Notes under the pieces: generated by a model | The model's database searches: none | Told to the model about the DNA's origin: nothing | What the model saw: the letters and a program-made list of their open reading frames with translations, nothing else | From: a virus | Lineage: Duplodnaviria > Caudoviricetes | Direction: 5' to 3' (one strand) | Length of the DNA stretch: 33,038 nt | IMG/VR virus record: IMGVR_UViG_3300027863_000112 | Coordinates: 1 to 33,038 of that record | Part shown: positions 1 through 33,038 of the stretch, one piece after another | Numbering within the stretch: the first letter of the stretch is position 1 | Layout: the number at the start of each line of letters is the position of its first letter | Translations under genes and position numbers: made by a program

Positions 1-294
1 TATTTAGTAAGATAGCTTTTTAAAGCTATGCCCGCAAAAACACTATACACCCTCTCTAAAAGGTGATAATATGCATGACACGTGGAAGTATTGGTATGAA
101 GAGCATCCCACCGCCGAAGCACAACGGCGCTGGCTGCTTAGATTGCAGTGTGCTTTTTCTCCGTCATGCGCGCCTGTTGTGGTTTGTAAGGAGGTCAACA
201 CCGAAAGGCTGCGACTTCCTGAGGCGATTTTGACGTATCAATTGCCTGTTAATCACCGTGTGATTTTGAAAAACGAGATAGTGATTGAATACGA
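1..294 (+). repeat. Direct repeat copy 1 (promoter plus 5' end of primase gene)
   Basis: 1-126 is identical to 17660-17785. Near-identity with clustered mismatches continues to about 294/17953. Confidence 0.97.
12..29 (+). promoter_or_regulatory. TATA box (TTTTTAAA) embedded in a palindrome; primase promoter/operator (also at 17671-17688)
   Basis: ATAGCTTT-TT-AAAGCTAT is a perfect 8-bp inverted repeat. SD AGGTGA at 61-66, ATG at 71. Confidence 0.55.
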
Positions 295-805
295 CAGTGA
301 GGAGCAAGAAAAAAACAAAGAAGCAACGCATGAAGTTATAGCGTGGCTGCGGCGGCGCAAAATTCCCTACGTCGTCGGATGGAGTGGCAACAAATCTTAC
401 CACGTCCACGTTTGGATAGACGTTGCAAGCATCACGTTTTCTGCAGACACTGCGGAATGGATGAAGACGTTGGGGCTCACCGCAGCGGACTTTAGGAACT
501 ACGTCTATCAAAAGTTTTTCTATAAGCGCTTAAAAGATATTGAAACGAAGACAGGCGCGAAACTAGACGAGACGCTCCACAACCGCAACCACCTCATTCG
601 CGAGTTTGGGGGCGTGAATCAGAAAACAGGAAAGCGCAAAACATTTATAAATGATGAGTTGGAATTACCTCACCCATTGCAAGTTATTTATCCGCAAGGC
701 GTGGAGTTTTGGCACGTCCCGGAATGGCAAGAGGTGTTCTTCAAATTCCTAAGCACGATGGAGAAACAAAAGAAAAAAGAAACATTAGAGGGGTGGTTTG
801 CGTGA
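71..805 (+). CDS. Archaeo-eukaryotic primase (AEP) superfamily primase/polymerase
   Basis: Motif I IVIEYD (ExD variant), motif II SGNKSYHVH, motif III LDE followed by HLIREFG. Coupled to an SF3 helicase. Confidence 0.75.
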   Translation: MHDTWKYWYEEHPTAEAQRRWLLRLQCAFSPSCAPVVVCKEVNTERLRLPEAILTYQLPVNHRVILKNEIVIEYDSEEQEKNKEATHEVIAWLRRRKIPYVVGWSGNKSYHVHVWIDVASITFSADTAEWMKTLGLTAADFRNYVYQKFFYKRLKDIETKTGAKLDETLHNRNHLIREFGGVNQKTGKRKTFINDELELPHPLQVIYPQGVEFWHVPEWQEVFFKFLSTMEKQKKKETLEGWFA

Positions 806-2379
806 CGGAAAGCGCGAATAAGTTGTTTGACTACAACAGTTGGAAAGAAAAGAAAATGGAAGATGGCTTCTTCAAAAAATTTCACCAAAACGAGGAAATC
901 CTTAAAATAATGGAGCAGTCAATTTGGAACGCCATGCGCGCAAAAACGTTGACCCTTGAGGAATACGAAACGTTGAAGATGAACTTAATTCGCGTCCGTT
1001 TACCTTCTGCGCGGGACACGCTTTTTATATGCGTTATCCTTATAGACCTTCAACGCCAGGATTACTACCCCTACGCATTGCTTGACTATAAAGGCAGACC
1101 TTATGAATTAATGATTACACACTGGGATAGAGAAAAAGGAACTTTGGAGAATGTGGTTAATATCCACCAAAAGTTTTTAGAAATGGCTATTAAAAATATT
1201 ACATATTACAGAGGATGCTTAACGTACCCAAAAATCAAAGAATTACAAGAATACGCAGCGCAAATATGCGCACTGTGCGGTTTTGTACAGCAACAGAACC
1301 AAGGGCAGTTCGCTGTGAGAAACGGGACGGTGCTTGTAGGCGGCGGTGAACTTATTGTTAACCAACCCAACGAAGATACAATTTATTTTGATGCACCCAT
1401 CCCGAATAGAATTCCACGCGTGATATTACAAAACTTCCAACGAGACCCAAAACACCGCATAGAAAAAATTTTAAGCGACATCCTCGGCGAAGAAAAAGAG
1501 CGGTTTTTGATGGCGCTCGCGTCTTCGCTTATTTCTACGCAGAAATTAGCGCTATTTCTTGTAGGCTGCGGAGCAAACGGAAAAAGCGTATTATGTGAAA
1601 TGCTGCGCACGACATTTGGACGAGAGAACTGCGGAAGCGTTAGATTCTCCAACATCGCACATAATGACTATGCACTCCCAAACTTAGAAAATAAAATATT
1701 AAACATCGCATCGGAGGAAGGCACCGAACTTTTGAAGAGTCTAAGCACAGCAGATTTTAAAGGAATAACAGGCAACGATATTATAGAAGTGGAACAAAAA
1801 TACCAACCACGGCGCGAAGCGCAGATATACGCAACGCATATATTCGCTATGAATGAACTACCAGAAATAGAACTCAGCCAGGCGGTGCTTCGACGTATTG
1901 AAATCTTCCACTGCCCCCACATCTTCGTGCCCGCAGAGGAAGCGGACGGCGTAAAAACACTGCCCGAAAATAAAAACTTGCTTAATGAATTAACAAACGA
2001 AGATTATGATTACCTGGCGAATCTGATAATCCATAAAATGAAAGAAGTTAAAGACATTACAAAACTGCCAATCATGAATGAAGAGGCAAAACGGAAAAAA
2101 TATGAAGAACACACACCGACGGAAAGCATCGCTCGCTTCTTAGAAGAAACTTTTGAGCGCAGATTTAACGATTACGGCGAACCTGAGCCAGGCAAGAACA
2201 TCCCACGCAAGGAACTTTACGAACTTTATACCGCATGGTGCAAGAAAACGGGCGCTAGTATCTGCGGCAAAAAGAGAGTTTTTGAATATTTAGAAAAAGA
2301 AGAAGGGTTGGAAGTTAAGATTGTGCGCGGCATACCTTGTTTTGCAGGTTTGGATAAAAAGGATAGATTTGTGAAATAA
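802..2379 (+). CDS. SF3 (D5/P4-like) replicative helicase with C-terminal winged helix
   Basis: Walker A GCGANGKS, Walker B NIASEE, motif C IFAMNELP, Arg finger LRRI, C-terminal ELYELYTAWC. Start placed at GTG 802 (GTGA overlap with primase stop, SD GAGGGGTGG). Confidence 0.9.
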   Translation: MTESANKLFDYNSWKEKKMEDGFFKKFHQNEEILKIMEQSIWNAMRAKTLTLEEYETLKMNLIRVRLPSARDTLFICVILIDLQRQDYYPYALLDYKGRPYELMITHWDREKGTLENVVNIHQKFLEMAIKNITYYRGCLTYPKIKELQEYAAQICALCGFVQQQNQGQFAVRNGTVLVGGGELIVNQPNEDTIYFDAPIPNRIPRVILQNFQRDPKHRIEKILSDILGEEKERFLMALASSLISTQKLALFLVGCGANGKSVLCEMLRTTFGRENCGSVRFSNIAHNDYALPNLENKILNIASEEGTELLKSLSTADFKGITGNDIIEVEQKYQPRREAQIYATHIFAMNELPEIELSQAVLRRIEIFHCPHIFVPAEEADGVKTLPENKNLLNELTNEDYDYLANLIIHKMKEVKDITKLPIMNEEAKRKKYEEHTPTESIARFLEETFERRFNDYGEPEPGKNIPRKELYELYTAWCKKTGASICGKKRVFEYLEKEEGLEVKIVRGIPCFAGLDKKDRFVK

Positions 2380-2482
2380 ACGCAGCTTAATCTATATAAA
2401 AGGGTCTGCTGCGGACCTCCGCCGCCCTTCTTTTTTCCTTTTCCGACGCCTAACTTTTGCCCCTTCTTTTTGTTTTTTTGTT

Positions 2483-2720
2483 AAGGGGGTATATAAGAAG
2501 TAATACGTATATTAAAAGGGTGAAAAACACTTTGAACTTTTTGGAAAGTTTGTGAAGGTATATACATAGTATATGTGTCACACCCCAGTTTTGCGTATGG
2601 TGTTTTAACCATTCTTCACCCTATATCGATTTTTACGTCATAGCATTTAGGGTGTAAAATCATTTTTTTTACTTTTCACCCTCAGTTTTTTATTTTACAC
2701 CCCAAATATATACCCCCCTT
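2483..2720. repeat. Putative replication origin A with CACCC/GGGTG iterons
   Basis: AT-rich and non-coding. AGGGTGAAAA 2517, TCACACCCC 2578, TTCACCCT 2615, AGGGTGTAAAAT 2649, TTTTCACCCT 2673, ATTTTACACCCC 2692. Bracketed by inverted AAGGGGGTATATA (2483) and TATATACCCCCCTT (2707). Confidence 0.6.
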
Positions 2721-3019
2721 TTAAAAAACAACGAGCGGAAAACGAGCAGAGCGGGCGCTGCGGGGCAGAAAACGGGGAGGGAGGAAGGGAAGAGCGGGCG
2801 CGCAGCGTTTGCAGGTTTAAAGCCTGTTCCTGTGCGTTTTTTGGAGGGTTAGCGGTCAGGGCGCCTTGTTAGTGTGTTGTTCACTGCGCCCCCAAAAAAA
2901 GAGAAATAAAGAAAAACGCGCGCGTCATAGTGGCCTAAAAAGAAAGAAAGAGAAAAACGGAGCAGTATATACGTCGCAACATTTATAAATTTAATATCTG
3001 GTATATAAACATAACCTGA

Positions 3020-3035
3020 CCAAAAGATTTATATA
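3020..3035 (+). promoter_or_regulatory. BRE-TATA promoter
   Basis: CCAAAAGATTTATATA, conserved with 20999-21014. SD GAGGTGA before ATG 3069. Confidence 0.65.
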
Positions 3036-3068
3036 TATAATTGTATACAATAAACCTGAGGTGAATAT

Positions 3069-3329
3069 ATGCAAGAAGAACAGAAACAGAATATACAGGG
3101 CGTCGTGCAAAGTCCAGGCATCCGAAAATTTGAACCTGCGCCTCCTGACTTCATTGGGCGCACGGAGAAAGGCGAATACGTGGGCATGTGGGAGAGGATA
3201 ACACGACAGCGCCGCGCCTATTTTCGCGTCGCGGTTAAGCGCAGCGATGGCACAATTGAAAAATTCAACCTCTACATCAACGAGCGCGCAAAGGTCAAAC
3301 CTTCCCCAGATGTTGCTACGAGTCCCTGA
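3069..3329 (+). CDS. Small beta-rich protein, DUF736-like pattern, possible ssDNA-binding protein
   Basis: PDFIGRTEKGEYVGMWERIT...YFRVAV...FNLYIN. Clear homolog at 21051-21332. Function is inferred. Confidence 0.6.
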   Translation: MQEEQKQNIQGVVQSPGIRKFEPAPPDFIGRTEKGEYVGMWERITRQRRAYFRVAVKRSDGTIEKFNLYINERAKVKPSPDVATSP

Positions 3330-3339
3330 GGTGGTTGGA

Positions 3340-3738
3340 ATGCCTGTTCGGTTAGAAAAGAAATATACACCTGAGCAACAACAGCAGATTATCAACGAAT
3401 ACCAGGCTGGCGCAGTGTTAGTCGATTTGGCGGCGCGATATAAATACACCCCTGTAACCGTCCTTAACTTTCTCAAACGAAAAGGAGTGAAGACGTGGGG
3501 ACGTATTGAGCGCATACAAGGGAGGCGTTCACAACGCCAGGAATGGATTAAGCAGTTGCTACTCTCCAAAATTGCAACAGGCAATATATTTACGTTGAAA
3601 CAGATTTGTGCGGAGGTCGGGCTTTCTGAGGTCTGCGTCCGCGGGCATCTAAGAGATTTAGTCAGGAAAAAAGAAATAGACCAGGCTAAACTCCAGGTGT
3701 GTTGCAAGCGCCTGCGATTCCCTACGGATGGTTGTTGA
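3340..3738 (+). CDS. Tandem HTH DNA-binding protein
   Basis: Two HTH-like segments (LVDLAARYKYTPVTVLNFL; LKQICAEVGLSEVCVRGHL). Homolog at 21494-21973. Start reassigned to ATG 3340 (SD GAGGTGG). Confidence 0.75.
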   Translation: MPVRLEKKYTPEQQQQIINEYQAGAVLVDLAARYKYTPVTVLNFLKRKGVKTWGRIERIQGRRSQRQEWIKQLLLSKIATGNIFTLKQICAEVGLSEVCVRGHLRDLVRKKEIDQAKLQVCCKRLRFPTDGC

Positions 3739-3752
3739 GGAGGTGTCAGGAC

Positions 3753-3891
3753 ATGGCTGGATGTATAAGAATGCGGCGCCGCAGACGCCGAAATTATGCT
3801 CTGTGAGGAGTGTTACACGCGGCTTAAGCGCCGCCACCGTCTATTCCCATATGACCCTGGCGAGGAGGATGACTATGATGAAGACATTTAA
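3753..3891 (+). pseudogene. Frameshifted small CxxC-CxxC zinc-binding protein
   Basis: Removing one A at 3767/3768 gives MAGCIECGAADAEIMLCEECYTRLKRRHRLFPYDPGEEDDYDEDI. SD GAGGAGGTG upstream; stop overlaps the next gene. Confidence 0.5.
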
Positions 3892-4204
3892 CCGACGCCG
3901 CAGCGCTGCGCGTGGCAGCGAATACGAACGCCTTCGTATGCATTTTTACGTCGAGCAGGGCTACGGTGTCCTCCACCGCGCAACGCGCGCAAAATTCCAA
4001 CAAGTGGACTTAGCAGGCGTCTGGGACTTGTGGCTTGCTAAAGGTGGCAAGTGGCTATTCGTTCAGGTCACGACGCGCCCAAACGCAGCGAAACACCGCC
4101 GTGAGTGCGTAGTCTGGCTCGGGAAATACAGAAACCCATCATGTGAATATCGCCTAGATTACTATGACCCTAAAGCCGATGTTTGGCAATCCGAAGTCTT
4201 TTAA
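3875..4204 (+). CDS. PD-(D/E)xK nuclease, archaeal Holliday junction resolvase (Hjc)-like
   Basis: RGSEYER...QGYGVLHR...WDLWLAKGGKWLFVQVT. SD GAGGAGG at 3862-3868. Confidence 0.65.
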   Translation: MMKTFNRRRSAARGSEYERLRMHFYVEQGYGVLHRATRAKFQQVDLAGVWDLWLAKGGKWLFVQVTTRPNAAKHRRECVVWLGKYRNPSCEYRLDYYDPKADVWQSEVF

Positions 4205-4499
4205 CCTCCTCCTTTTCTTTTCTCTTCTTTTTTTTGTTTTGCTTATTATGTTCCTTGCTTCCTTGCTCTTCCCAGACGACCAAGTTTTAGAAACTCGCAA
4301 ATATCTATGCGATGCTAAAATAGTTTCGGCCGATGTCTGCGAAAGATGGGCGCGTGAAGCCGAATTTATGCGAATGCTGCAAGAATGCGGGAAAAAATGC
4401 GAAGGGATGCACGGGGTTGTTCTCTATCTATGCGCAGGCATTGACGGTGAATACCACTACACTAACACGACCTGCTTTGCTCCTCAAATCCAGCCATGA
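4164..4499 (+). CDS. Membrane-anchored Cys-rich hypothetical protein
   Basis: N-terminal hydrophobic helix LLLFFSLLFFVLLIMFLASLLF and six Cys. Start uncertain. Confidence 0.55.
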   Translation: MTLKPMFGNPKSFNLLLFFSLLFFVLLIMFLASLLFPDDQVLETRKYLCDAKIVSADVCERWAREAEFMRMLQECGKKCEGMHGVVLYLCAGIDGEYHYTNTTCFAPQIQP

Positions 4500-4675
4500 G
4501 CGTCCGAGCGGTTGCGTCTATATCCATAATAAGATTTACCATGTTTTGATTTTCTTTTCCCTGGCTCCATGGCGTGGCGTTTGAAGTCCAACAACTCGCA
4601 ACGCACGCCATGCTTGCAGACTACTTCAGTTTGGCGGTCAGAAGCACAGACTACCCTCGCGCCACCATGGCTCAT
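4484..4675 (-). CDS. Small basic protein, putative virion DNA-binding protein
   Basis: K/R-rich C-terminus KRHAMEPGKRKSKHGKSYYGYRRNRSD. Co-oriented downstream of the capsid candidate. ATG 4675 overlaps an upstream TAA. Confidence 0.5.
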   Translation of the reverse strand: MSHGGARVVCASDRQTEVVCKHGVRCELLDFKRHAMEPGKRKSKHGKSYYGYRRNRSDAHGWI

Positions 4676-4773
4676 TAATCCACCACGCACGTGGCGCGTT
4701 TTCTCTTCATTGTTTCACCTCTCTAAAAGAAAGAGAAAAGCGCAGGCATTGTTGCCTGCGCTCGTCTCATTCT

Positions 4774-5022
4774 TTATTCCTGCCTGCCAAAGCCCACTGA
4801 GAACGCGCTAATCACGACGGTCATAACTACCGACAGCGCTATGATGGTTCCAACGAGCCCGAGGTCGCTGCCCAGGTTAGTGAATGCCGAAGTGACGTTC
4901 CCGACGAACAGCCCAGCATCTCCTGTCAAGTTCAGGCTGTTAAGCACCTTCAGCATGACACCGCCGAAGATGCCTATCATGCCGAGAATATAGACGGCAG
5001 GCACCAAATCTCCAAGCTTCAT
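4774..5022 (-). CDS. Putative major capsid protein, spindle-shaped virus type (SSV1 VP1/His1-like hydrophobic hairpin)
   Basis: 82 aa with two long hydrophobic helices separated by a polar loop carrying NLT and NVT sequons, and a short charged tail GRQE. Strong SD AGGTGA and own divergent promoter. Confidence 0.6.
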   Translation of the reverse strand: MKLGDLVPAVYILGMIGIFGGVMLKVLNSLNLTGDAGLFVGNVTSAFTNLGSDLGLVGTIIALSVVMTVVISAFSVGFGRQE

Positions 5023-5069
5023 TTTATCACCTTGCCCCGACGAGGGACAAAAGGATTAAGATATATGCC

Positions 5070-5140
5070 TTTAAAAAACTATGTTAACAAGTAAAAAACT
5101 ATGTTAACAAGTTAACACGTCCGACCAAAAGCTTTAAATA
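5070..5140. promoter_or_regulatory. Divergent promoter region with tandem 20-bp repeat and palindromic operators
   Basis: TAAAAAACTATGTTAACAAG twice (5072-5091, 5092-5111). TGTTAACA at 5082 and 5102, GTTAAC at 5111. Minus-strand TATA at 5070-5077; plus-strand CCAAAAGCTTTAAATA at 5125-5140. Confidence 0.7.
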
Positions 5141-5162
5141 TACCATCTCCAAAATGCAAAGC

Positions 5163-8048
5163 ATGGCATGGGGTGACATCCCCGCCGTGCGCACGGGGCA
5201 AATGCCTGCGCGCACCGAAGGGACGGGTTGGGCATCTACTGGTTGGGCTTCTTACGTCGCAGGGGGAGGGGGTGGCAGCACAGGCACAGGCGGAGGGAGT
5301 AGTGGAAGGGGCGGAAGTTCAACGACAAGCCAGTCGACGCCGCCGCAGCAAACACAACCGCAGGGGCGCATCGTCGGCTACAATCCTGACAAGACACCGA
5401 TCTATGCGACAACTGAGACAGCGCAGACGCCAGCACCGACGCAACCGAGCGAAACGCCGAGCGCTTCTAATTTGTTTCATGGCGCTCCCATCTACATCAA
5501 TGGACAACGGGTATATCCTAACACACCGTCGTGGACTGCGCAAGGATATCAGAACGTCGGACTAGTTTACACTGAGCACGGCGTCCTACCGCCTGCAGCA
5601 GCTGGCTATTATCTCCAGCAGCAATACCGCAACGTCCAAGAAGTTGTGAACCCACAGAAGCAAGTCTACGAATTCCGAGGCACTGGTGAACTAATCGCCA
5701 CGCAATACGTCGCACCGTCGGGCGAACGTTCCCAGATGTTCGTGGCGCCAGGGTGGACTTACAATCCAGCGCAGGAGGCGTTTGTTAAGTATATCACGGT
5801 CGCAACGGAGCCACCCAAACCACAACAACCTCAGCAACCTCAATACACTAACGAGGCATTGCAGGCACGCATCGCACAAATCAACGAGGAACTGCAACCG
5901 CGGCAGTTCATCCCGTCGTGGAGCGATTTGGCGACGGGAGCGTTTAGGTTTGGTCTATTTGGTGGGTTTGAGCCGCAAACACCTGAGGCACGGCTGGAAC
6001 TTGGAAAGCATGTTTTAGCCGAACAAAACCGCATTATCTCGGTTGCACGTGGAGCGCTTCCACTCGTCCGTTCCTACGCCGAACCTGAGGAAGCCGCAAG
6101 GTTTGAGGCGTCCATCCAGGCATTGCAAAAAGAGAATACAAGGGCGGGCGTCCAACTTGCAGATTACGCCGCGAGCATCGGAGCATACCGCTATGCGCAG
6201 GCTCAAACTGTAGCACTTCCTAAAACGCCTTTTAACACTGCTTGGGAGGCGCTTGGGCACAAAGTCCCAGAGCGCTCCGTTGGGCTGGAAAAGATAGGCA
6301 CTCCTGAATTCGGAGAGGCTTTGATGTATTCCTGGGTCGGTGGGGCATATAATCTTGTTCATTCCGCCGTGGAGTTCGGCGTGGAAGTTGGGACACCGAT
6401 TCCGATTATTGCACGAGTTGCGCAAGGTAAAAACGTTGCAAGTTATCCTGTGGAAATGGCGCAAAAGTGGGGCGGGCAGGTAATCGCTGCTGCTCCTTAC
6501 GTTGCACTCGGCGCAACGGGCGCAGGCGCTGCGTTTTATATTCCTGCGTATTGGGCGGGAACGAAATTAGTAAGAGGAGGCGGGCTAACGGCGCAAGACC
6601 TCGGAGAAATCGGCACGGCTGGAACTTTGATATTCTACTCGGCGAAAGCCGCCGAATGGCACAGAGTGGAGCAACCGAGTTATACGCTGCGGTATAAACT
6701 TTGGGAGGCTCCAGAGCGTGGCATGATGGGTGGGACGTCCATCACGCTCACCGAATACCAGCGCAATCTCGGCATTCTCGGCGAGCAGCGCGCAGTTCAA
6801 GCACAAACTGACGTTTGGGCTGCGCAGGTTGGGAAGGGCGGGGTCTCCTCGTATTCGGTGGAGCCTGGCGTTTCTTACTTCCGAGGCCAGCAGATACCGA
6901 CGTATTCCGTGGGGCTTACAAGTCCAGAAATGACCTTACCAGCAAGACCAGGATATTTAAGCGAGGAGGGGCTGCTTGTTAAGCCGCTTCCAGAGATGCA
7001 AGGCGTTAGTCCTGTCGCTGCTGCGACGTTTTCAGAGCAGGGAGCAACGGCTGGCGTGGGACTCGCAAAAGTTTTTAAGCAAGGCGTCAGTCAGACAGGC
7101 ATCCCTTACGTCGATATCATGGGCAACATATACGCAGGTCCCGCAGTTGTTCAATCCGTCGGCGCTGGCGGGGTCTTTGTTGGCGTGGAGGAAGGCACGG
7201 GCGCTTTTCAGCCTTACTTTGTCCGTTTCTTCGACCTGACCGCAACGTCTAAACTTCCCTCTGTCGCTCCATCTGTGACCACCTCAACGTCTGGAGGCGT
7301 GGGCGTGATGGGAGGAGCGCCAACAGGTGCGACTACTCAAGCGCTCGCAGCCTCCACTACTCTTGCTCAAATGCCGCCATCCATCGCGCCATCTCAAATT
7401 ACGACGTTTATCGCGCCTCCGCTTGTTTCGCAGCAACAGACGGCAGTTAAAACGGTGCAGGCAAGCCCTCCAGCGCCAACTCAAACGCGGGTTATGCAGG
7501 TTCAAGCCCCCGCGCTCCAACTCCGCGAAACAGCACGAACGATAACTCAACCTTCGCAGGTTCAAATTCCACGCACGCAGCAGCTTGTCGTTCAAGTTCC
7601 TCGGCAGCAACAGCCAATGCTGCAGTTTTCAAAAGAGACCGAAATCCCTGCACAAATTACGGCACCGCGGCAGGTTCCGATATCCAAGCAGACGCAAATA
7701 CTACAGCCTACTGTGGCGTTGCAGCTGCGGGCTCAAATCCTGCAAAACGTAGAGTTAGGCGCGCCCAAAATCATGCCGCCGCCGTCTCTCAAGATATCCA
7801 CGCCGCCAATTCCACCGATTCCGCCGATTAAATCTTTATGGGGTGGTGGAGGTGAGGGCGCAGGGCTTCCACGTTTCAACGTGGCAAAAGGGAAGCCGCA
7901 ACCGAAACGCTATGCCCCAGACGTTCGCAGTTCGGAGTTTGGGTTTAAGATGCCTAAATTGAAAGCCGAGAAGGTGAGCAAAGCAACGGGCGCACTTGTT
8001 CGCCCCGTTCCAAAAGGTAAGAGAAAATGGAAAAGCGCAGTTATTTAA
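5163..8048 (+). CDS. Large low-complexity (G/S, Q/P/T-rich) protein, probable virion-associated protein
   Basis: About 960-aa open frame with Gly/Ser N-terminus, central weakly hydrophobic Gly/Ala helices, Q/P/T tail and basic C-terminus. ATG 5163 is about 23 nt after the TATA (leaderless). Confidence 0.7.
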   Translation: MAWGDIPAVRTGQMPARTEGTGWASTGWASYVAGGGGGSTGTGGGSSGRGGSSTTSQSTPPQQTQPQGRIVGYNPDKTPIYATTETAQTPAPTQPSETPSASNLFHGAPIYINGQRVYPNTPSWTAQGYQNVGLVYTEHGVLPPAAAGYYLQQQYRNVQEVVNPQKQVYEFRGTGELIATQYVAPSGERSQMFVAPGWTYNPAQEAFVKYITVATEPPKPQQPQQPQYTNEALQARIAQINEELQPRQFIPSWSDLATGAFRFGLFGGFEPQTPEARLELGKHVLAEQNRIISVARGALPLVRSYAEPEEAARFEASIQALQKENTRAGVQLADYAASIGAYRYAQAQTVALPKTPFNTAWEALGHKVPERSVGLEKIGTPEFGEALMYSWVGGAYNLVHSAVEFGVEVGTPIPIIARVAQGKNVASYPVEMAQKWGGQVIAAAPYVALGATGAGAAFYIPAYWAGTKLVRGGGLTAQDLGEIGTAGTLIFYSAKAAEWHRVEQPSYTLRYKLWEAPERGMMGGTSITLTEYQRNLGILGEQRAVQAQTDVWAAQVGKGGVSSYSVEPGVSYFRGQQIPTYSVGLTSPEMTLPARPGYLSEEGLLVKPLPEMQGVSPVAAATFSEQGATAGVGLAKVFKQGVSQTGIPYVDIMGNIYAGPAVVQSVGAGGVFVGVEEGTGAFQPYFVRFFDLTATSKLPSVAPSVTTSTSGGVGVMGGAPTGATTQALAASTTLAQMPPSIAPSQITTFIAPPLVSQQQTAVKTVQASPPAPTQTRVMQVQAPALQLRETARTITQPSQVQIPRTQQLVVQVPRQQQPMLQFSKETEIPAQITAPRQVPISKQTQILQPTVALQLRAQILQNVELGAPKIMPPPSLKISTPPIPPIPPIKSLWGGGGEGAGLPRFNVAKGKPQPKRYAPDVRSSEFGFKMPKLKAEKVSKATGALVRPVPKGKRKWKSAVI

Positions 8049-8542
8049 CCGCAACGAAGAAAGGCACGATATTAGACTTATTCTTTATTGCTATCGTCTT
8101 AATCGTCGTCATGATAGCGGTTATATTATCATTCCATACGTTTAATACAATCCTTGGCGCCTTGCAATCTTCTGAGAATTTTAACAACGGGGAGTTAAAC
8201 ATCACGTCGCAAAGCGTGCAAACCATCGCTAACTTCAACTATCTAATGCTATTTATTTGGGTTGGTGTCGGCGTTGCTTCGGTTGTTTCGGCGTTTGCAG
8301 TCCGCACACATCCCATCTTTTTTGTTTTCTTCTTATTGCTCCAGGTTCTACTGCTTGCGATTCTTCCGATGTTTCAAGACGCTTATAATGCTATCTCATC
8401 CAATCCTTCCTTTTCTTCATCGGTCACGTATTTTAATTGGTTCGCCGTGATTATTTCAAACCTTCCAATTATCACGTTGGCGCTGTCCGTTCTGGTGGCG
8501 CTCGCGATGTTTGCACTGCCAAGCGGTGGGGGTTATGGATAA
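8027..8542 (+). CDS. Four-helix membrane protein with class III (prepilin-type) signal-like N-terminus; possible minor capsid protein
   Basis: KKG|TILDLFFIAIVLIVV start, two hydrophobic hairpins, NIT sequon in the first loop. Confidence 0.65.
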   Translation: MEKRSYLTATKKGTILDLFFIAIVLIVVMIAVILSFHTFNTILGALQSSENFNNGELNITSQSVQTIANFNYLMLFIWVGVGVASVVSAFAVRTHPIFFVFFLLLQVLLLAILPMFQDAYNAISSNPSFSSSVTYFNWFAVIISNLPIITLALSVLVALAMFALPSGGGYG

Positions 8543-11039
8543 TAAATTAATTTTTCTTGGCGTTTTGTTGCTTGCTGCCGTAGTCTTTGCACAGACAAAC
8601 ATTACAGCCTGCGGCACGTATTCAACTAATAACGAAGTCTACGTTATCACACAAGACTTAACAGCAAATAATGCGAACTGCTTAACGTTTAATGGGACTA
8701 ATCAGACGATTAACGGGCAATGGCACACTCTCTGGGTTACAAACGAGGCGGGCTTGCATGCAGTGGTGACTATTTCGGGGAATAATATTACATTTGAAAA
8801 CGCAACAATCACGGGCGGATGTTGGGGGGTTTTGTTCTATAGTTCTTCTGCTAATATCAGAAACCTAGACGTCAGCGGGCAAGTTACACAAATAGGCTGC
8901 GCGGGTATATCCATACCTTCGTCGAATGTCTCAGCGAATCTTACAACGATTTATGTTCATGAGACTAATACTATTAACGCGATATCATCAGCGAGCACGG
9001 CATCAGGGCAAATATTGAACTTCACCAACGTCGTTGCAGAAAGTCCGAATTACGGTTTAGATATGGAGGCGACAAGTTCGACGTTTATAGATGGCGGATA
9101 TAATTATTGGGCTAACTGCACGGGTTCCTGCTCGTGGTATACAATCACACGCACGACTAACGAAATATGCCAAGAAGATACTTGTGCGCTTTCTTCGCAT
9201 CCAGACACTAATTACGGGACAGCGACACAAGAGCCAAACGATGGGTCGACAGGAGACCGTAGGGACTTCTTCCGTCACTGCCGCAATTTATCTATGCCAC
9301 CTGGTCGTGTTATTAGTTCCATCGTCCTCTGGTTTTATGGAGGCGGCTATTGTCCTGATGGGACTACTTACGATTACCTAATAGACCTGGATGGCTCAAA
9401 GATGGGCTGGAGCGAAAACACCACAACATGGAACAACCAACCTAATAATTGGCCGACAGTCGGCACTAATCTAAATTTGGCTTGTGGGTATCATTGGGTT
9501 AGTCTTAACTATCCAATTGATTATAATAATGAGGTTCTTTATAAAGATAATTATGGCTTGTATTCCTTTTCAAGAACTAAAGGGGTTTATTTTCATGAAA
9601 ACGGAACTTATGCGCCTTACCGCCAACTAACTTGGCGTTATGCCTGCGGCAACTATAATAAGAACATTGTTTACTCTTGCAACCTATCCAGCTGCAACGC
9701 GACAATATGGAAACAGATACTTACAACACCGGGCGCGGTATATTGCTCGGTTTCAATACCTAACAATGCAAGCATTGCAATATATAACTTAACATCGGGG
9801 CAAAGTCTTAACCCCACGCTTATTTATGACGCCTACAATTCTACTTATAACTGGGTCTCGTTCGCGGTGTCGGCATATCAATTTTATAATGTTGTAAGCA
9901 CGCAGATAATGGATAAAATAATCGTAGACACAGTATGTCCCATAGGTTTCTCTGACGTTTATAGTATCTCGTTTTTGGATGAGTCCAACAACGTGGCAAC
10001 GCAAGGAAACGCAACGTTAGTTTTTGTAGGCAATAACCTCAACCTGACTAAAACAGTTAGCAATGTCTCCAATTTCAAAATTTGTTTATATCCGGATTTT
10101 CACGGGCAGGCTAGCACCACGATAACATACAATGGCGCTAATTACGCAACGCGTAATTATTACATCACATTTGACGAGAACTCCAGCGGGTCAATAACGT
10201 TATACCAAATCCCTGCCTCCGTAGCGTCATATATCACTTTCAAGACGCAAAACCAATTCGCCCAACCTCTTAAAAACAGGAAGCAATATTATATGCGTTA
10301 TTTCATTTCTGATAACACTTATAAACTCGTTGCTATGGGTATAACGGACGACGACGGGTTTTATACTGCGCCGCTCTTCACGAATGATGGCTCGGCAGTT
10401 TATAAAATTATATCTTATGCTGAGGACGGAACAACAATAGAAAAAACATTTTCTAAGGAAACGGTATACTGCACAGCAGGGCAAGCCTGCGAGCATTACC
10501 TTATCATTTCAAGCACGCAAGAACTGCCAGAATACTGGATAAGTTACTATGGCAAAGTTATTTATAATTGCACTGACGACATGGCAAATAAACAAATCTC
10601 TTGCACTTATACAGACAGCAGCGGCGAGTCGCATACGTTCGACTTGCAACTCTTCCGTCTTGGGCTCGGAAATCCTGTTAGTCTCTGTAATACCTCCTCA
10701 ACAAGCGCGGCAGCGACGCTTACCTGCACGATTAGCGAAAACACGACAGGCAACATCTACGCATGGCGGTTCACACGACATAGCGAACAGACGATAATTA
10801 CTAATGGGCTCTGGGACTACCGAGAAGCAGCGTTTAAAATGGCTGGTCTTGGCGTTTCGTTGCTTATTCTTGCTGCAAGCTTCGCAATAGGGTTATTTAA
10901 TCCTGCTGCCGCCGTGATTTTTGGGTCAATTGGCTTAATCATGAGTAACTTGATGGGGCTTATCCAAATTGATATAACGGCAATTGCTGGCGTGGTGTTG
11001 GTAGCGGTGTTCCTGGCGTGGAGGTTTTCATCAAGGTGA
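8535..11039 (+). CDS. Large secreted, C-terminally membrane-anchored glycoprotein (adhesin/spike, SSV1 VP4-like architecture)
   Basis: Signal peptide MDNKLIFLGVLLLAAVVFA, beta-helix-like N-terminal repeats, many N-x-S/T sequons and Cys, three C-terminal TM helices. Confidence 0.8.
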   Translation: MDNKLIFLGVLLLAAVVFAQTNITACGTYSTNNEVYVITQDLTANNANCLTFNGTNQTINGQWHTLWVTNEAGLHAVVTISGNNITFENATITGGCWGVLFYSSSANIRNLDVSGQVTQIGCAGISIPSSNVSANLTTIYVHETNTINAISSASTASGQILNFTNVVAESPNYGLDMEATSSTFIDGGYNYWANCTGSCSWYTITRTTNEICQEDTCALSSHPDTNYGTATQEPNDGSTGDRRDFFRHCRNLSMPPGRVISSIVLWFYGGGYCPDGTTYDYLIDLDGSKMGWSENTTTWNNQPNNWPTVGTNLNLACGYHWVSLNYPIDYNNEVLYKDNYGLYSFSRTKGVYFHENGTYAPYRQLTWRYACGNYNKNIVYSCNLSSCNATIWKQILTTPGAVYCSVSIPNNASIAIYNLTSGQSLNPTLIYDAYNSTYNWVSFAVSAYQFYNVVSTQIMDKIIVDTVCPIGFSDVYSISFLDESNNVATQGNATLVFVGNNLNLTKTVSNVSNFKICLYPDFHGQASTTITYNGANYATRNYYITFDENSSGSITLYQIPASVASYITFKTQNQFAQPLKNRKQYYMRYFISDNTYKLVAMGITDDDGFYTAPLFTNDGSAVYKIISYAEDGTTIEKTFSKETVYCTAGQACEHYLIISSTQELPEYWISYYGKVIYNCTDDMANKQISCTYTDSSGESHTFDLQLFRLGLGNPVSLCNTSSTSAAATLTCTISENTTGNIYAWRFTRHSEQTIITNGLWDYREAAFKMAGLGVSLLILAASFAIGLFNPAAAVIFGSIGLIMSNLMGLIQIDITAIAGVVLVAVFLAWRFSSR

Positions 11040-11043
11040 TAAA

Positions 11044-11493
11044 GTGGACGGAGAAATCAGCGGGTTGGTGTTCGCAGCGCTGGCGGTGTTTGTTGCTATC
11101 GTTGCATTAACTGGATTCATGAGCAGTTTATCCATATCCTATAACGTTTCTACGACGGCAGATGTCCAAAATCTCATTACCACGGCGAATACATCTACGC
11201 AAAACATCGCGTCATTTGTTAATTCCTCATCGGGGCAGATAACTCAAAATGATTACGGCGGGGGCGTCTCGTTCCTTTGGCTAACGTCAGGCGCCTTAAC
11301 GACCATCGCAAACATAATTACCAGCCTCCCAAGTGTTCTTTATGCTCTCTTCGTGGCGTTTGTTAATGCAATCTCTATACCATTGGGCATTTCTCCCGCG
11401 CTCTCTGGGTTGGTGGTTAGCATAGTCTATACCGCAGTCCTTGCGACGTTCCTATTCGCTGTGTTATATGCCTTAATCAAGGTGAAACTGTGA
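11044..11493 (+). CDS. Membrane protein (about 3 TM, glycosylation sequons)
   Basis: Hydrophobic helices; NVS, NTS and NSS sequons; SD AGGTGA. Confidence 0.7.
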   Translation: MDGEISGLVFAALAVFVAIVALTGFMSSLSISYNVSTTADVQNLITTANTSTQNIASFVNSSSGQITQNDYGGGVSFLWLTSGALTTIANIITSLPSVLYALFVAFVNAISIPLGISPALSGLVVSIVYTAVLATFLFAVLYALIKVKL

Positions 11494-11759
11494 CTTATAA
11501 CTATTCAACGTTTAATGACCTGCTGATAAGTGCAAACACTACAACAGGAGGGCTTTATGGCGCAATCCTTCCGTTCGTGATTTTTTTAATTGTATATGGC
11601 TATACGAGCATCTGGGGATTCAAGAAGGCGTTTGCAACTGCGAGCTTTCTATCGTTCTTGTTCGCTGCTCCATTGTTCGCTTTAGGCATCTTATCGGGTT
11701 GGATTTTCACGATTCTATTAGTTTTAACGCTTATTGGCGTGTTCCTAAACGTCAGGTGA
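11490..11759 (+). CDS. Small 3-TM membrane protein
   Basis: 89 aa, highly hydrophobic, GTGA overlap with the previous gene. Confidence 0.7.
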   Translation: MTYNYSTFNDLLISANTTTGGLYGAILPFVIFLIVYGYTSIWGFKKAFATASFLSFLFAAPLFALGILSGWIFTILLVLTLIGVFLNVR

Positions 11760-11763
11760 TAGA

Positions 11764-12171
11764 ATGTTAGAGGGCGCAATAGTAGCGACGGTAATTTTGG
11801 CTGCCTTTGCTTTGGCTATTCCGCGCGATAGGGATTTTTTGAAAAATCTTTTTTTCTTCGCTTCGCTTCTATCTCTTCTGTTAGTATTTGACCAGTCAAT
11901 GACCGCAGAAAAAGCGGGGGCGTGGTATGTCTCTGGAATAACGGAAAACTGCACGGCTTGGAACTCTACAACCTGCGCAACATGGGAGAAGACATATGCC
12001 TATATCCAGCAACCTGCAACGTGGAACACCGCGACATGGGACACGTTTTACGTCGTAATTATTCTGACTATCGTATTGGCAATGATTTATGTCGTGATTA
12101 TGCTAATAAATAATATGTTACAAGCGATGGCCTCGGCATGGGATAAAATAAGAGGCGTGGAAAATGAATAA
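11764..12171 (+). CDS. Membrane protein (3 TM)
   Basis: Hydrophobic helices flank a Cys/sequon loop (ENCTAWNSTTC). SD AGGTGA. Confidence 0.7.
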   Translation: MLEGAIVATVILAAFALAIPRDRDFLKNLFFFASLLSLLLVFDQSMTAEKAGAWYVSGITENCTAWNSTTCATWEKTYAYIQQPATWNTATWDTFYVVIILTIVLAMIYVVIMLINNMLQAMASAWDKIRGVENE

Positions 12172-12370
12172 CAAGCGCACGCGCATAATCCGAGTTTCGG
12201 AAGAATTCGCGGCACAAGTAGACGAATTAGCAAGAACGAGCGGCTTATCACGAGTGGAAATAACGCGCTTATTGTTAGAACAGCGAGGTTTAGAAGAAAT
12301 GATACAAAAAGCGATGCAAGAAAATATACGGAAAGAAAAACGGAAGGTTTTGGAGTGGAGCCCTATTTAG
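12164..12370 (+). CDS. Ribbon-helix-helix (CopG/Arc-like) regulator
   Basis: TRIIRVSEEFAAQVDELARTSGLSRVEITRLLL fits the RHH pattern. Confidence 0.75.
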   Translation: MNNKRTRIIRVSEEFAAQVDELARTSGLSRVEITRLLLEQRGLEEMIQKAMQENIRKEKRKVLEWSPI

Positions 12371-12428
12371 GGGTGGTTCAAAATGTCTTCCGTCTCCGCG
12401 ACCTAATGGCAGTAAGTAGCGGAAGAGG

Positions 12429-12444
12429 CCGAAAGATTTAAATA
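12429..12444 (+). promoter_or_regulatory. BRE-TATA promoter of the recombinase (leaderless)
   Basis: CCGAAAGATTTAAATA, about 24 nt before ATG 12468. Confidence 0.6.
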
Positions 12445-12467
12445 TGCCTTGGCACTGAAGTCCTATT

Positions 12468-13085
12468 ATGCCTGAAAATGGGAAGCAACAAGAAAACAAG
12501 AAGTGGGGGCGTTATGACTGGAAATATACAAGCGGGCGCATGGCATTAACTCGCGAAGAAATCCATCGTATGCTTTCCTTGATTAACTCGGTCTATGATG
12601 AGGCGCTTATTAAGTTGGCATTGGCGACTGGGATAAGACGCGAGGATATCGTCAGGATAGAGTTACAGAACATAGACTGGGAGCATGGCATTATCAGATT
12701 CTGGGAAGAGAAGAAAAACAGAGAATGGCGGGTATTTGTAGATGAGGCGACGCTTGCAGTGCTGCAAAAACACGTTGAGGTCAATTGCAGACCTTACCGA
12801 ACTAAATATTTATTCCCTGCCATGCGCGGGGACAGAACGAGGAACCACCTAAGTGGGCGTGGCGCATATGGAAAATTCCAGGAGGCGCTTAAACGCGCAG
12901 GACTGGAACCGCGACCATTTCACACGCTCCGCGCAACATTCATTAAAAACGCCTGGGCTGCTGGCTGGACTCCAGCGCAGATAATGGAACAGACGGGCGA
13001 CACATTAGAAACCATCCAATTACATTATGCCACTCCAACCGCTGCCGAAATGGCAGGGGTGGTTAAAGAAAAAAAGATTTTTTAA
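12468..13085 (+). CDS. Tyrosine recombinase/integrase, catalytic domain only
   Basis: TGIRRED (R), EKK (K), HTLR, TGD..TIQLHY (Y); 205 aa. Confidence 0.9.
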   Translation: MPENGKQQENKKWGRYDWKYTSGRMALTREEIHRMLSLINSVYDEALIKLALATGIRREDIVRIELQNIDWEHGIIRFWEEKKNREWRVFVDEATLAVLQKHVEVNCRPYRTKYLFPAMRGDRTRNHLSGRGAYGKFQEALKRAGLEPRPFHTLRATFIKNAWAAGWTPAQIMEQTGDTLETIQLHYATPTAAEMAGVVKEKKIF

Positions 13086-13097
13086 GAGGAGGATAAA

Positions 13098-14032: not shown

Positions 14033-14036
14033 TCAA

Positions 14037-15228: not shown

Positions 15229-15229
15229 G

Positions 15230-31226: not shown

Positions 31227-31236
31227 GTGCTAGCAA

Positions 31237-31599
31237 ATGGCAGAAGTAGAAAAGACAGAAAAAATAGGCGCAGTGATGCGCTACCACGGCACGAAGACCA
31301 ATTCAAACGCTACGGTAACCACCTCTGTTTCAGATGTTATCAGTGCAACAGAAATAAGAGGAGCGACGGGTTTCTTTGCAATTAAAAATACGGGTGCAAA
31401 TAGTGTTGTTGTGTATCCAAGAATTTCCGCGGATGGCAGTGAGTGGTTTGAGTTGGACAACGGCAGCGGAACGACTATCGCAGCATCTGGGAAATATATA
31501 ATCTCATGGGTTGGGACGTATCGTTTCATTAAATTATCTGCTGCGACTACATCGGGGACTACTACAATCAATGCATATCTCTACTACGCAAAGGCTTGA
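31237..31599 (+). CDS. Beta-rich putative virion protein
   Basis: 120 aa, T/S/G-rich beta-sandwich-like sequence (IKNTGANS, SADGSEW). Confidence 0.55.
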   Translation: MAEVEKTEKIGAVMRYHGTKTNSNATVTTSVSDVISATEIRGATGFFAIKNTGANSVVVYPRISADGSEWFELDNGSGTTIAASGKYIISWVGTYRFIKLSAATTSGTTTINAYLYYAKA

Positions 31600-31611
31600 T
31601 GGTAATGCGAT

Positions 31612-33038
31612 ATGGCAACAATCTACTCAAACGGAACGGGGGGCGGGAATTGGAGTAGTGGTAGTTCTTGGCAGGGTGGCGCAGTTCCTACTTCTTCGGA
31701 TGACGTTATTATTCAAGTAGGAGATACTATTTTACTCGACGTTAACGTTGCTGTGAATTCAATTTGGATTAACGGAGTATTAAACATATCAACATATTCT
31801 ATTAATTCGCCAACGTTCACTGTAGCGAGTGGTGGAGTAGTTCAAACGAGCACTGGAACAATAACGGCAGCTACCTCTCTTGAAATACATGGAACGCTTG
31901 GAACAGCAAATACAGCGTATATATTATCGTGCGGGGCTCTATCTATATTTTCCGATGGAACTTTCAACGCTCCAAATAGTTCGGGTTCATGCACAATTTC
32001 AGGAAATCTAAGTTATTATGTTGGTGGAACGTTTAACCACAATAATGGAACAATCACACTCAACGCCGCCTCAAATAATATTGATATTTCAGGGTCTATG
32101 ACATTTTGGAATTTGACAGCGCAAGGAAGTTATCAAACAAAATTCAACAATAGTACTAACGTCCAAAATGTATTAACTTTTTCGGGTGCGGGTTGGAAAA
32201 CATTAGCGAATGGGGTTGAGTTGACAATCGGGCACTCTGGTAATGCGGGTTCATTTAGCAATTCATGCTCAAACGCATTCAGAACAAATGAAGCAAACGC
32301 AATATTTACGGTGCAAGGTTATCTTTCAACAACAAGGACACCATGCACGGGTAGTAATTGGTATTTTGGTGCGGATGCCCAAAACGTCGTGCTCAAAACA
32401 AAAAATCTTGATTTTCAGTTTAACATTTCTACTGTCGGTGGAAACAACAATTATACGTGGGAAATTATAGATAACGTGAAAGTTGGGTGGGTGTATATTA
32501 ATGGACAAGATACATGGAAATGTACCACGCCTGGCGCAGTAATTGATGGAGGTTCGTCTGGTAGCGCTCAAGTAATTTATGGAAAAATCTATTTTGAAGG
32601 GACAAGCGCAAATCCTCTCCAACTCGGAAAAAATACTATCTGGGGTGGACTTAACGTAGCTGGGAATAACTCTTCTATATATCTCAAATATGTAAATATG
32701 AAGAGTTATTACGCTGCTTTTGCATTTGGATACCCTGCACAAGTTGCAGGATACAATCAAATAGTAATTGAAAATAATTCATTCACGACGTATACGACTG
32801 GCGACCCCTCTATCCATATGTATAATTGCACAGTTCCGATTACAATCAAGGATAGTATTATTACAAGCGCTACAGGGGCTCAAATAAGTATATATTTTTA
32901 CCTTAATGGAAAATTACAATTCGAAAATACCATTTATAACAAATCAGTTAAATTTTATGGTGGAGGTAATAATCGTTGGTTCGTTAACAAAAAATCCAAC
33001 GGCGATTTTGATGTTTACGGGCAATTTAACAGTGAAGA
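31612..33038 (+). CDS. Large beta-rich adhesin/fibre protein (G8-like start), 3'-truncated, not in ORF track
   Basis: MATIYSNGTGGGNWSSGSSWQGGAVPTSSDDVII... The frame stays open with no stop to the window end. Confidence 0.8.
   Translation, partial: MATIYSNGTGGGNWSSGSSWQGGAVPTSSDDVIIQVGDTILLDVNVAVNSIWINGVLNISTYSINSPTFTVASGGVVQTSTGTITAATSLEIHGTLGTANTAYILSCGALSIFSDGTFNAPNSSGSCTISGNLSYYVGGTFNHNNGTITLNAASNNIDISGSMTFWNLTAQGSYQTKFNNSTNVQNVLTFSGAGWKTLANGVELTIGHSGNAGSFSNSCSNAFRTNEANAIFTVQGYLSTTRTPCTGSNWYFGADAQNVVLKTKNLDFQFNISTVGGNNNYTWEIIDNVKVGWVYINGQDTWKCTTPGAVIDGGSSGSAQVIYGKIYFEGTSANPLQLGKNTIWGGLNVAGNNSSIYLKYVNMKSYYAAFAFGYPAQVAGYNQIVIENNSFTTYTTGDPSIHMYNCTVPITIKDSIITSATGAQISIYFYLNGKLQFENTIYNKSVKFYGGGNNRWFVNKKSNGDFDVYGQFNSE

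Follow-up and report, generated by a model that had tools for sequence, protein, structure and literature searches.

Homologous replication cassettes in a predicted spindle-type virus and a tailed virus on one contig, probably joined by assembly

Replication modules move among archaeal virus families, as is known mostly from single-gene trees. Tebi-SV1, a virus of spindle shape, and the pleolipovirus Tebi-PV1 of Halorubrum TLS-6 are co-infecting viruses of differing virion types which, according to the accessible part of the report, have in common a repressor, a nuclease, small proteins, a non-coding region of 88% identity and an operator (PMC13612827). For Thermococcales, the accessible part of a preprint describes MCM exchange between the spindle-shaped 'Sethviridae' and the icosahedral 'Yamaviridae' (PMC12934983). 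Precedents for sharing across morphotypes were found in the literature, but none for a pair of spindle-shaped and head-tail viruses. The window analyzed here, a DNA stretch of 33,038 nt, contains unit A (1–17659; 17,659 bp), likely a spindle-type virus with its circular genome complete, and the first 15.4 kb (17660–33038) of unit B, a tailed virus of ∼27,950 bp in whole, neither unit being assigned a strand. The window probably arose when an assembler passed from one virus into another, the two being separate and likely circular: A (17.7 kb, predicted to be spindle-type) and B (tailed, ∼28 kb). Their primase-helicase-origin-regulator cassettes are homologous, and both contain one near-identical block of 750 bp that likely stems from recent recombination while they occupied the same, likely archaeal, host. 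Compared with the Tebi viruses as described in the accessible text, the partner of A is a head-tail virus and not a pleolipovirus, the shared module is primase-helicase-origin instead of integrase-repressor, and the shared block is 94–100% identical and runs into a coding gene, with co-infection of A and B only deduced. Similar to the Sethviridae and Yamaviridae of the partly accessible preprint, replication genes cross between families of different morphotype; there a single gene was traced by phylogeny, whereas A shares an ordered multi-gene cassette and a recent DNA-level patch with a Caudoviricetes partner. This cassette is common to a spindle-type and a head-tail virus, and the patch is recent enough to show 94–100% identity.

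Unit A resembles Fuselloviridae (SSV1/2), Halspiviridae (His1), TPV1, PAV1, and wyrdviruses, as covered in the accessible part of the source, in its similar genome size and in coding for a pI/Zot-like ATPase, a small hairpin protein of hydrophobic character, an adhesin-like protein, a tyrosine recombinase, and several small membrane proteins; it differs in that only the ATPase is firmly related and that replication is of the predicted AEP plus SF3 type (10.1101/2021.07.29.453957). The Zot/pI-like ATPase (15230–16204, + strand) scored 43.6 bits on the SSV1/SSV2/His1/TPV1 ATPase profile, the next of 19 proteins scoring 0.3, and this score was reached by 0/100 global and 0/100 local shuffles. It also matched phrog_5484 (E 6e-7) and Atlas Zot clusters (0.94), and its prediction as an SSV1/His1/TPV1-type ATPase is well supported. 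No tblastn match was obtained at E 0.1 for SSV1, TPV1, and PAV1 against 16 A proteins. Hydropathy scanning revealed a membrane-protein-rich module following the cassette. The structural operon (5154–12171, + strand) codes for a 964-aa low-complexity protein, a 171-aa protein with four TM segments, an 834-aa adhesin-like protein, and three small multi-TM proteins. The adhesin-like protein contains a CBM96/DNRLRE domain (PF24517, NF033679), C-terminal TM anchors, and 24 sequons, and showed no match to SSV1 VP4. A 205-aa tyrosine recombinase (PF00589, E 1.3e-19) is encoded at 12468–13085 (+ strand). An 82-aa hydrophobic protein (4774–5022, − strand) was modeled as a helical hairpin (H3-29/H35-78, pLDDT 78) with sequons at N31 (NLT) and N42 (NVT). 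A hairpin with sequons in the turn is a described capsid feature of spindle viruses (PMC10866085), and the protein is tentatively proposed as the candidate major capsid protein of A.

The head module of B (22429–30825, + strand) comprises an HTH protein (TerS candidate), TerL, a MuF-like-fused portal, an ATP-grasp PurD-like protein, a prohead protease, and the major capsid protein (MCP), with matches to PF17289, PF04860, PF04233, PF04586, PF17236, phrog_2, phrog_18178, and phrog_24667. Caudoviricetes marks were found in PF17289 and PF04586 (both above cut-off), phrog_2 (E 2e-32), and phrog_18178 (E 8e-46). The MCP, HK97-type by sequence, matched phrog_24667 (E 8e-55) and PF17236 (above cut-off); it had no PDB sequence match, and its single-sequence structure model (pLDDT 29) gave no usable fold. 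The reported continuation of B into terminase, portal, protease, and HK97-type MCP was confirmed at the sequence level by PF17289, phrog_18178, PF04586, and phrog_24667. Beyond the window, the tail side of a separate B record, G001, carries Neck1 (phrog_5), tape measure (phrog_58), and tail genes (phrog_18409 and phrog_400). With genes for the head, neck, tape measure, and tail, B qualifies as a complete tailed virus. Its MCP showed 28–33% identity over 98% of length to those of HVTV-1, HCTV-1, HCTV-5, and Caudoviricetes sp. vir519 (33% for HVTV-1/HCTV-1); the three haloviruses measure ∼102 kb and vir519 38.8 kb, as against ∼28 kb for B. The B terminase was closest to that of Bacillus phage BCD7 (34.5%).

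The gene order, i.e., primase, helicase, repeat-rich non-coding region, ∼90-aa protein, and HTH protein, is the same in A and B. The cassette described earlier as shared in one order was confirmed in its order and in the homology of its genes, but its similarity is mosaic rather than one block, the origin repeats differ, and B contains an extra 103-aa ORF (20063–20374). The A primase (71–805, + strand) is probably AEP/Prim-Pol-like, its profile matching CAPP Prim-Pol structures (E 0.003) over the G-x-K-S-x-H motif. No Pfam match was found for the A or B primase, and sub-cutoff Prim-Pol or DNA_primase_S matches were present in 5/20 relatives scanned. The B primase (17730–18488, + strand) is 54% identical in amino acids to that of A, with 71/75 identical residues in the first 75 and 65/160 in the remainder. 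Even outside the near-identical block the two are mutually closest (39% vs. at most 36%), and they were placed as sisters (SH-aLRT 82) in the primase tree, which came from a quick search of 124 columns and in which the B branch is long. The D5-like SF3 helicase of A (850–2379, + strand; start codon uncertain) matched PF19263 (E 3.5e-15) and TIGR01613 (E 1.5e-29), and that of B (18493–20058, + strand) matched PF19263 above cut-off as well. The helicases share 34% identity, compared with 22–28% for the best-ranked GenBank phage helicases among the matches listed. Nucleotide identity between A and B over A 301–2500 was 46–63 per 100 against 53 in the shuffled control. As only ∼750 bp are near-identical, the helicases share only 34%, and the origin repeats differ, the sharing appears to be old and mosaic with one recent patch. 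The exchange of a whole cassette put forward in the preliminary description overstated how recent the sharing is, only ∼750 bp being recently shared. The description was upheld in that a homologous replication cassette occurs in two viruses with unrelated virions, whichever way the join is judged.

The putative origin region of A (2380–3068, no strand), non-coding, contains AGGGTG/CACCC-type repeats, and that of B (20375–21050, no strand) contains five GGGGGCAATT repeats; all five occurrences of GGGGGCAATT lie within this region (chance mean 0.07). These repeats are not common to the two regions; a 60-nt element (A, 2780–2839; B, 20792–20851) is common to both, and the GCGGGCGC motif is alike in A and B. 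The 86-aa protein of A (3069–3329, + strand) belongs to a family for which A, B, and one fragment were the only members seen (3 matches among 12 candidates in a collection of 5.8 billion). The 93-aa protein and HTH protein of B (21051–21973, + strand) show 66% and 64% identity, respectively, to their A counterparts. The A HTH protein (3247–3738, + strand), the true start of which is probably later, gave two weak Pfam HTH matches at residues 38–64 and 107–146, both below cut-off. Synteny had been thought to break right after the HTH gene. However, the next A gene (3728–4204, + strand), a putative nuclease with a weak YraN/UPF0102 match (E 0.03–0.05), has a homologue in the far part of B outside the window, with 38% identity across 117 aa (E 2e-23), and the upstream limit of the near-identical block is at 17207. 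Each virus would replicate from its own repeat-bearing origin beside its helicase gene. Since origin repeats and helicases have diverged, the replicons would be compatible and could co-reside, and since the ∼90-aa protein, HTH regulator, 60-nt element, and GCGGGCGC motif are still alike, cross-regulation is possible. Diverged origin repeats beside conserved regulators thus suggest how two such viruses could live in one cell. Co-residence would allow homologous recombination to homogenize patches, the latest being the upstream ORFs, promoter, and 5′ end of the primase gene.

The near-identical block (17207–17954, + strand; ∼750 bp, 94–100% identity) covers a 51-aa ORF, an 81-aa ORF, the promoter region, and the first 75 primase codons, reaching 450 nt upstream to 17207. 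It suggests a recent DNA swap inside a shared host and points to ongoing recombination there between viruses whose capsids are unrelated; the block and the alleles concerned are specified here. Positions 1–126 equal 17660–17785 letter for letter, and 1–295 and 17660–17954 are 94% identical, with 17 SNPs in this 295-nt primase-side part. A stretch of 213 nt (17573–17785, + strand) is free of known A/B differences, its limits being a 19-nt deletion at 17554 as the last upstream variant and the first primase SNP at 17786. We infer that A alleles change to B alleles within this stretch, which would be the chimeric join. As a repeat inside the patch, it would allow a short-read assembler to pass from A into B. 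The window starts 126 nt before the first divergent base, like a graph edge. An assembly walk is the most likely source of the tandem arrangement, which was upheld for this contig only, A and B being unjoined in the other assemblies seen.

Both units were found elsewhere as separate contigs of about unit length (27,703, 28,002, and 17,692 nt), which are compatible with, but no proof of, A-to-A or B-to-B closure. Record G001 is 100% identical to window positions 17663–33038 over 15.4 kb, extends 12.3 kb past the window with the full tail module, begins 123 nt ahead of the first primase SNP between A and B, and carries at its far end its own copy of 17207–17395 (A's last region) with 2 SNPs. The longest contig was 28,002 nt for 6/6 B-distal proteins looked up and also for P0008, the 74-aa allele of the 81-aa ORF that both units carry, their location on one contig being deduced from equal lengths; this length exceeds the computed B unit by 48 nt and matches 0/9 k values tried. 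One A protein lies on the separate 17,692-nt contig (17,659+33), a length that fits a circle plus 33 nt, or else breakage at the identical stretch that leaves overlaps of 123 nt. Runs X1 and X2 were examined as assembled contigs. The X1 graph is a figure-of-eight, in which two arms (A, 13,606 nt at depth 30.5; B, 23,413 nt at 23.7) enter one collapsed 718-nt contig (depth 42.7) and two leave it (A, 3,416 nt at 29; B, 3,920 nt at 21.2). The primase letters of the collapsed contig were A-type in both runs. X1 may be the run from which the window itself was assembled. The window's assembler crossed the repeat, possibly with read-pair support.

A real cointegrate, formed by a single crossover in the 750-bp block into a 45.6-kb A+B circle that makes up a substantial share of molecules and is able to resolve, would make the window a true junction. 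The window's contig does pass through the repeat, the block is a substrate for recombination, and a tyrosine recombinase is among the proteins of A. In both runs the two units occur together at 1.1–1.3:1 (A/B 1.29 in X1, ∼1.13 in X2), and they drop together ∼4-fold between them, as linkage would also predict. An obligate single genome, however, predicts equal depth, and in X1 the A arms stood at 29–30.5 vs. 21.2–23.7 for B (rough counting error ∼1), with similar GC in the two replication arms (0.43 vs. 0.41); these depths permit up to all B being joined with surplus free A. The X2 depths (∼6.9 for A, 6.1 for B, from listed pieces only) are too close to discriminate. Moreover, A and B were joined in none of the other assemblies seen, the switch coincides with the single stretch where phasing by short reads is impossible, and the contig start is graph-edge-like. 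We therefore regard the cointegrate as unlikely, and the natural cointegrate or dual-capsid genome suggested earlier is not the favored reading. The fuller version, a reversible 45.6-kb circle of a spindle and a head-tail virus in one archaeal host, with shared regulators, two routes of exit (by chronic extrusion or by lytic packaging), and a real junction in the window, is given only a slim chance. If real, the join would mean a genome with two unrelated virion types; under the favored assembly walk, the short shared block makes the window a clear case of a false 'dual-capsid' contig in virus databases. A helper/satellite pair, one unit relying on the particles or replication of the other, was also suggested earlier. 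Near-constant co-occurrence and the common regulators and motif would suit it, and spindle-virus satellites with primase-helicases have been described, but those in the accessible text measure 2.7–9 kb with incomplete modules (10.1101/2025.02.15.638363). Incomplete morphogenesis, expected of a pSSVx/SRCE-type satellite, was not seen: B is complete, and the 17.7 kb of A include an adhesin-like gene and an ATPase besides the capsid candidate. As each unit encodes its own morphogenesis genes, besides its own primase, helicase, and origin-like region, this relationship is very unlikely.

The virion type of A was considered likewise. Relaxase, VirB4, coupling-protein/ATPase, and pilus-assembly families were all absent at E 0.01 from the A proteins scanned, many of the A proteins lacking any family, and the sole non-helicase ATPase groups with spindle-virus ATPases. 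A looks like a virus rather than a conjugative or pilus element, in agreement with the virus-like nature proposed in the preliminary description. A could be an enveloped virus of a different kind (pleomorphic or bacilliform) or else a plasmid carried in vesicles. The 82-aa protein has no homologues and no Pfam, PHROG, or PDB sequence match, HMM and fold searches giving no match and being uninformative. On a 6-sequence capsid profile it was the best of 19 proteins, but at 6.0 bits (reached by 7/300 and 4/300 shuffles), against 8.0 bits on an unrelated membrane-protein profile. The 171-aa protein starts with a KKG-hydrophobic stretch, which we take to resemble a class III signal peptide. Conversely, the ATPase clearly groups with SSV1 B251, His1 gp16, and TPV1, and the hairpin, turn sequon, adhesin-like protein, and nearest named Atlas clusters (VP1_VP3 0.87, His1_capsid 0.86; leads) fit the published spindle-virus signature. 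A non-spindle A is accordingly considered improbable. Of the 'all-membrane, hairpin-capsid module' described before, the membrane-protein richness and predicted hairpin were retained, the homology to capsid profiles being weak. For the favored pair of a spindle-type and a tailed virus, no host was found; that both are hot-spring viruses of likely archaeal hosts is indicated by the source label (hot spring), by TATA-like boxes, and by what the B capsid and the A ATPase are related to.

A replication region was found to be present twice in the 33,038 bases, 17,659 bases apart. Positions 1-126 match 17660-17785 exactly, and 1-295 is 94% identical to 17660-17954. Both copies, one in unit A (1..17659) and one in unit B (17660 onward), carry in the same order a primase-like gene, a D5-like SF3 helicase gene, a repeat-rich non-coding region, a gene for a ∼90-aa protein, and an HTH gene, with amino-acid identities of 54, 34, 66, and 64% for the primase, helicase, ∼90-aa protein, and HTH protein, respectively. 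This bears out the claim of the preliminary description that the two units share a replication cassette in order: the cassettes are genuinely shared, and one patch of the shared sequence is recent. Both helicases pass Pfam DUF5906. The AEP label of the primase is weaker: it has no Pfam match of its own, its profile match (E 0.003) is to chains including 7P9J, given as the CAPP Prim-Pol domain in PMC10345425, and AEP-type matches weaker than the cut-off occurred in 5 of the 20 relatives scanned. The B cassette contains an additional 103-aa ORF (20063-20374), similar to the gene that immediately precedes the shared block at the far end of B (L009:307-534; 38% over 48 aa). In A, the gene following the HTH gene is 38% identical to a homologue in the far part of B. 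Members of the ∼90-aa family were detected only in A and B and on a 934-nt fragment (P0022, 71% to A), and a 1,592-nt contig (P0004) carries a primase fragment, 42% to A. These two fragments suggest at least one further element with this cassette.

The similarity between the two cassettes is mosaic. The first 75 residues of the primases are identical at 71 positions, the remainder at 65 of 160. Nucleotide identity stands at 88-100 per 100 before falling to ∼47 at position 300, stays at 46-63 per 100 through the helicase (shuffled control, 53), and climbs again in patches near the origin and both small genes. Purifying selection was rejected as the explanation of the near-identical block (∼750 bp, 17207..17954), since non-coding DNA forms part of it and since identity, at 88-100 per 100 before, drops to 47 inside the primase gene at ∼295. 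The origin-like region of B contains five copies of the repeat GGGGGCAATT (chance mean 0.07), which does not occur in A; the region in A carries AGGGTG/CACCC-type repeats, and a 60-nt element adjoining the origin is 88% alike in both. The motif GCGGGCGC occurs six times in the window (chance mean 1.1; none of 100 shuffles reached six), a test that was not blind as the motif was chosen after being noticed; five copies adjoin the origins or are paired in inverted orientation upstream of the primase. At 17609-17666, 108 nt ahead of the real primase start, a sequence resembling the ribosome-binding site and initial codons of the primase opens a 14-codon ORF; it may be a scar left by a past exchange.

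Among the sequences compared, the A and B primases match each other best even beyond the near-identical block, at 39% against at most 36%. A quick tree placed them as sisters (SH-aLRT 82); its 81 rows comprised the four seeds and the best 78 of the 150 new matches listed, one row being removed for length. Scans of viral contigs with both primases, the helicase alignment, and the shared block revealed no close relative except G001, an independent B record; one further locus, L002, was dismissed as a chance match. Three loci (L012-L014) hold distant primase relatives in larger genomes devoid of the other cassette parts. No host was found: the one scan of genome contigs with the ∼90-aa alignment gave a single match, to the single-cell genome of a gammaproteobacterium (L015; 35% over 37 aa, low-complexity type), and this match was rejected as chance. 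The window contains no tRNA, and hence no tRNA-type att site was seen, and no Rfam family.

Unit B is a complete tailed virus. Within the window it encodes a terminase, a portal, a protease, and a capsid protein 33% identical to the capsid proteins of HVTV-1 and HCTV-1. G001 (27,703 nt) begins at window position 17663, is identical as far as the window end, and extends 12.3 kb beyond it, a stretch that contains neck, tail, tape-measure, and methyltransferase genes. At its end stands a further copy of 17207-17395, differing by two SNPs, which shows that B comes back to its starting block, and the unit was computed at 27,954-27,970 bp. The terminase-portal-protease-HK97 capsid series described earlier was confirmed by sequence, on which the HK97 assignment rests because the capsid structure model was unusable (pLDDT 29). 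The portal (24881-26968) is a 695-aa single frame, in which an internal insert resembles a zinc ribbon and the C-terminal part is a MuF-like domain. Between portal and protease lies an ATP-grasp, PurD-like gene (26965-28236; TIGR00877, E 1e-16, below the cut-off).

Judged from its proteins, unit A most probably represents a spindle-type virus. The A ATPase (324 aa) scored 43.6 bits on a profile of the ATPases of SSV1, SSV2, His1, and TPV1; the runner-up among the 19 window proteins scored 0.3 bits, and no shuffle equaled the ATPase. In the Atlas it lies near Zot-like clusters (0.94); a contig scan gave no locus for it, and tblastn no GenBank phage match. No conjugation or pilus family was matched among the A proteins scanned, and the ATPase groups with those of spindle viruses; in keeping with the two-virion claim, unit A seems viral rather than conjugative or pilus-related. 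The module is completed by an anchored adhesin-like protein of 834 aa and a number of small membrane proteins. For two membrane proteins of A, of 89 and 149 aa, a correspondence to His1 gp24/gp23 and SSV B78 found no support (their scores were reached by 251 and 128 of 300 shuffles, respectively). A 171-aa four-TM protein (8027-8542) starts with a basic stretch and KKG followed by a hydrophobic run, resembling a class III (prepilin) signal peptide.

The hairpin capsid proposed for A remains a candidate. The protein, from an 82-aa ORF (4774-5022, minus strand), is predicted to fold into a hairpin of two helices, with sequons placed at the turn and where helix 2 begins, a pattern of spindle capsids according to PMC10866085. 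Against it, no homologue was found, and its 6.0 bits on a six-sequence capsid profile were below the 8.0 bits from an unrelated membrane-protein profile. That profile of capsids includes PAV1 ORF121, the TPV1 8215 ORF, and His1 gp21, which we take to be capsid proteins. Fold searches returned generic helical hairpins only (best Z 8.4; none below E 0.001 in Foldseek), which is evidence neither way, and the nearest named Atlas clusters, VP1_VP3 (0.87) and His1_capsid (0.86), are leads only. A 23-nt inverted repeat with a 4-nt loop (4726-4775) forms a terminator-like hairpin just beyond the stop of the candidate. The divergent intergenic region between it and the structural operon (5022-5154) contains a perfect 20-nt tandem repeat at 5072-5112.

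The join between the units was evaluated with two public sequencing runs, X1 and X2, which cover the region as contigs; the window itself may derive from X1. In X1, the contigs form a graph shaped like a figure-of-eight. Two bodies, one of A with 13,606 nt (depth 30.5) and one of B with 23,413 nt (depth 23.7), stop at 17207-17236 and are followed by a shared contig (718 nt, depth 42.7), from which an A arm (3,416 nt, depth 29) and a B arm (3,920 nt, depth 21.2) depart. The shared contig carries A-type primase letters in both runs. At 17441-17573, X2 showed differing letters equal to P0008, a 74-aa allele of an 81-aa ORF; this is presumably the B allele, as its longest contig measures 28,002 nt, a length also obtained for all six B-distal proteins looked up. 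The predicted depth of the shared contig is 43.6 if A and B differ at 17441-17573 and 47.3 if not, the former being nearer to that seen. In the window, A alleles thus extend as far as 17573 and B alleles begin at 17786, separated by 213 bases that are identical in both units.

The tandem arrangement claimed in the preliminary description is, in our estimation, rather probably an artefact. Each unit stands alone in other assemblies, and the two are joined in this contig only, the 213-nt stretch being phased by none of these contigs. An A protein also lies on a separate 17,692-nt contig, i.e., unit A plus 33 nt, a length also expected for a graph break at the identical stretch with 123-nt overlaps, matching the start offset of G001; 28,002 nt fits none of the nine overlap sizes tried. 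The A/B depth ratio of 1.29 in X1, for which GC bias was ruled out in the replication arms (0.43 vs. 0.41), rules out an obligate single genome and still fits a mixture of free A and joined molecules. The ratio in X2 is ∼1.13 (7 A and 9 B pieces listed, among 46 records), and both depths drop ∼four-fold together between the runs (two runs, no statistic), which is compatible with physical linkage and equally with both viruses residing in one host. A real cointegrate fraction, which would also give such a joint fall, is unlikely.

Under the artefact reading, each virus would use its own origin repeats as the loading site for its SF3 helicase and primase, the divergence of these repeats would render both replicons compatible, and the alike regulators and shared motif could permit cross-talk. 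In a co-infected cell, homologous recombination may copy patches between cassettes, the ∼750 bp being the latest. A single crossover in this block would fuse both circles temporarily, and hence short-lived cointegrates are plausible even if the tandem genome is an artefact. A short conserved patch where the HTH genes end (3612-3680 and 21775-21843; 88% over 69 nt) is a second shared node in the X1 graph, and a crossover there would exchange whole cassettes between the A and B bodies.

By title and start of abstract, the literature covered, which comprised few subscription papers, contained no spindle and head-tail pair with a common replication cassette and no dual-capsid genome; such a case could stand in subscription papers or in supplements. 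The accessible portions of PMC4284463 and PMC10541130 hold nothing specific to this comparison. Spindle-virus replication modules are known to be variable (10.1101/2021.07.29.453957; 10.1101/2025.02.15.638363), and a primase-helicase satellite has been proposed to integrate into its helper virus (10.64898/2026.08.12.739948). Tebi-SV1 and Tebi-PV1 have a repressor and a nuclease in common, as well as a region of 88% identity (PMC13612827), and MCM genes have moved between spindle and icosahedral Thermococcales viruses (PMC12934983), both being precedents for sharing across morphotypes.
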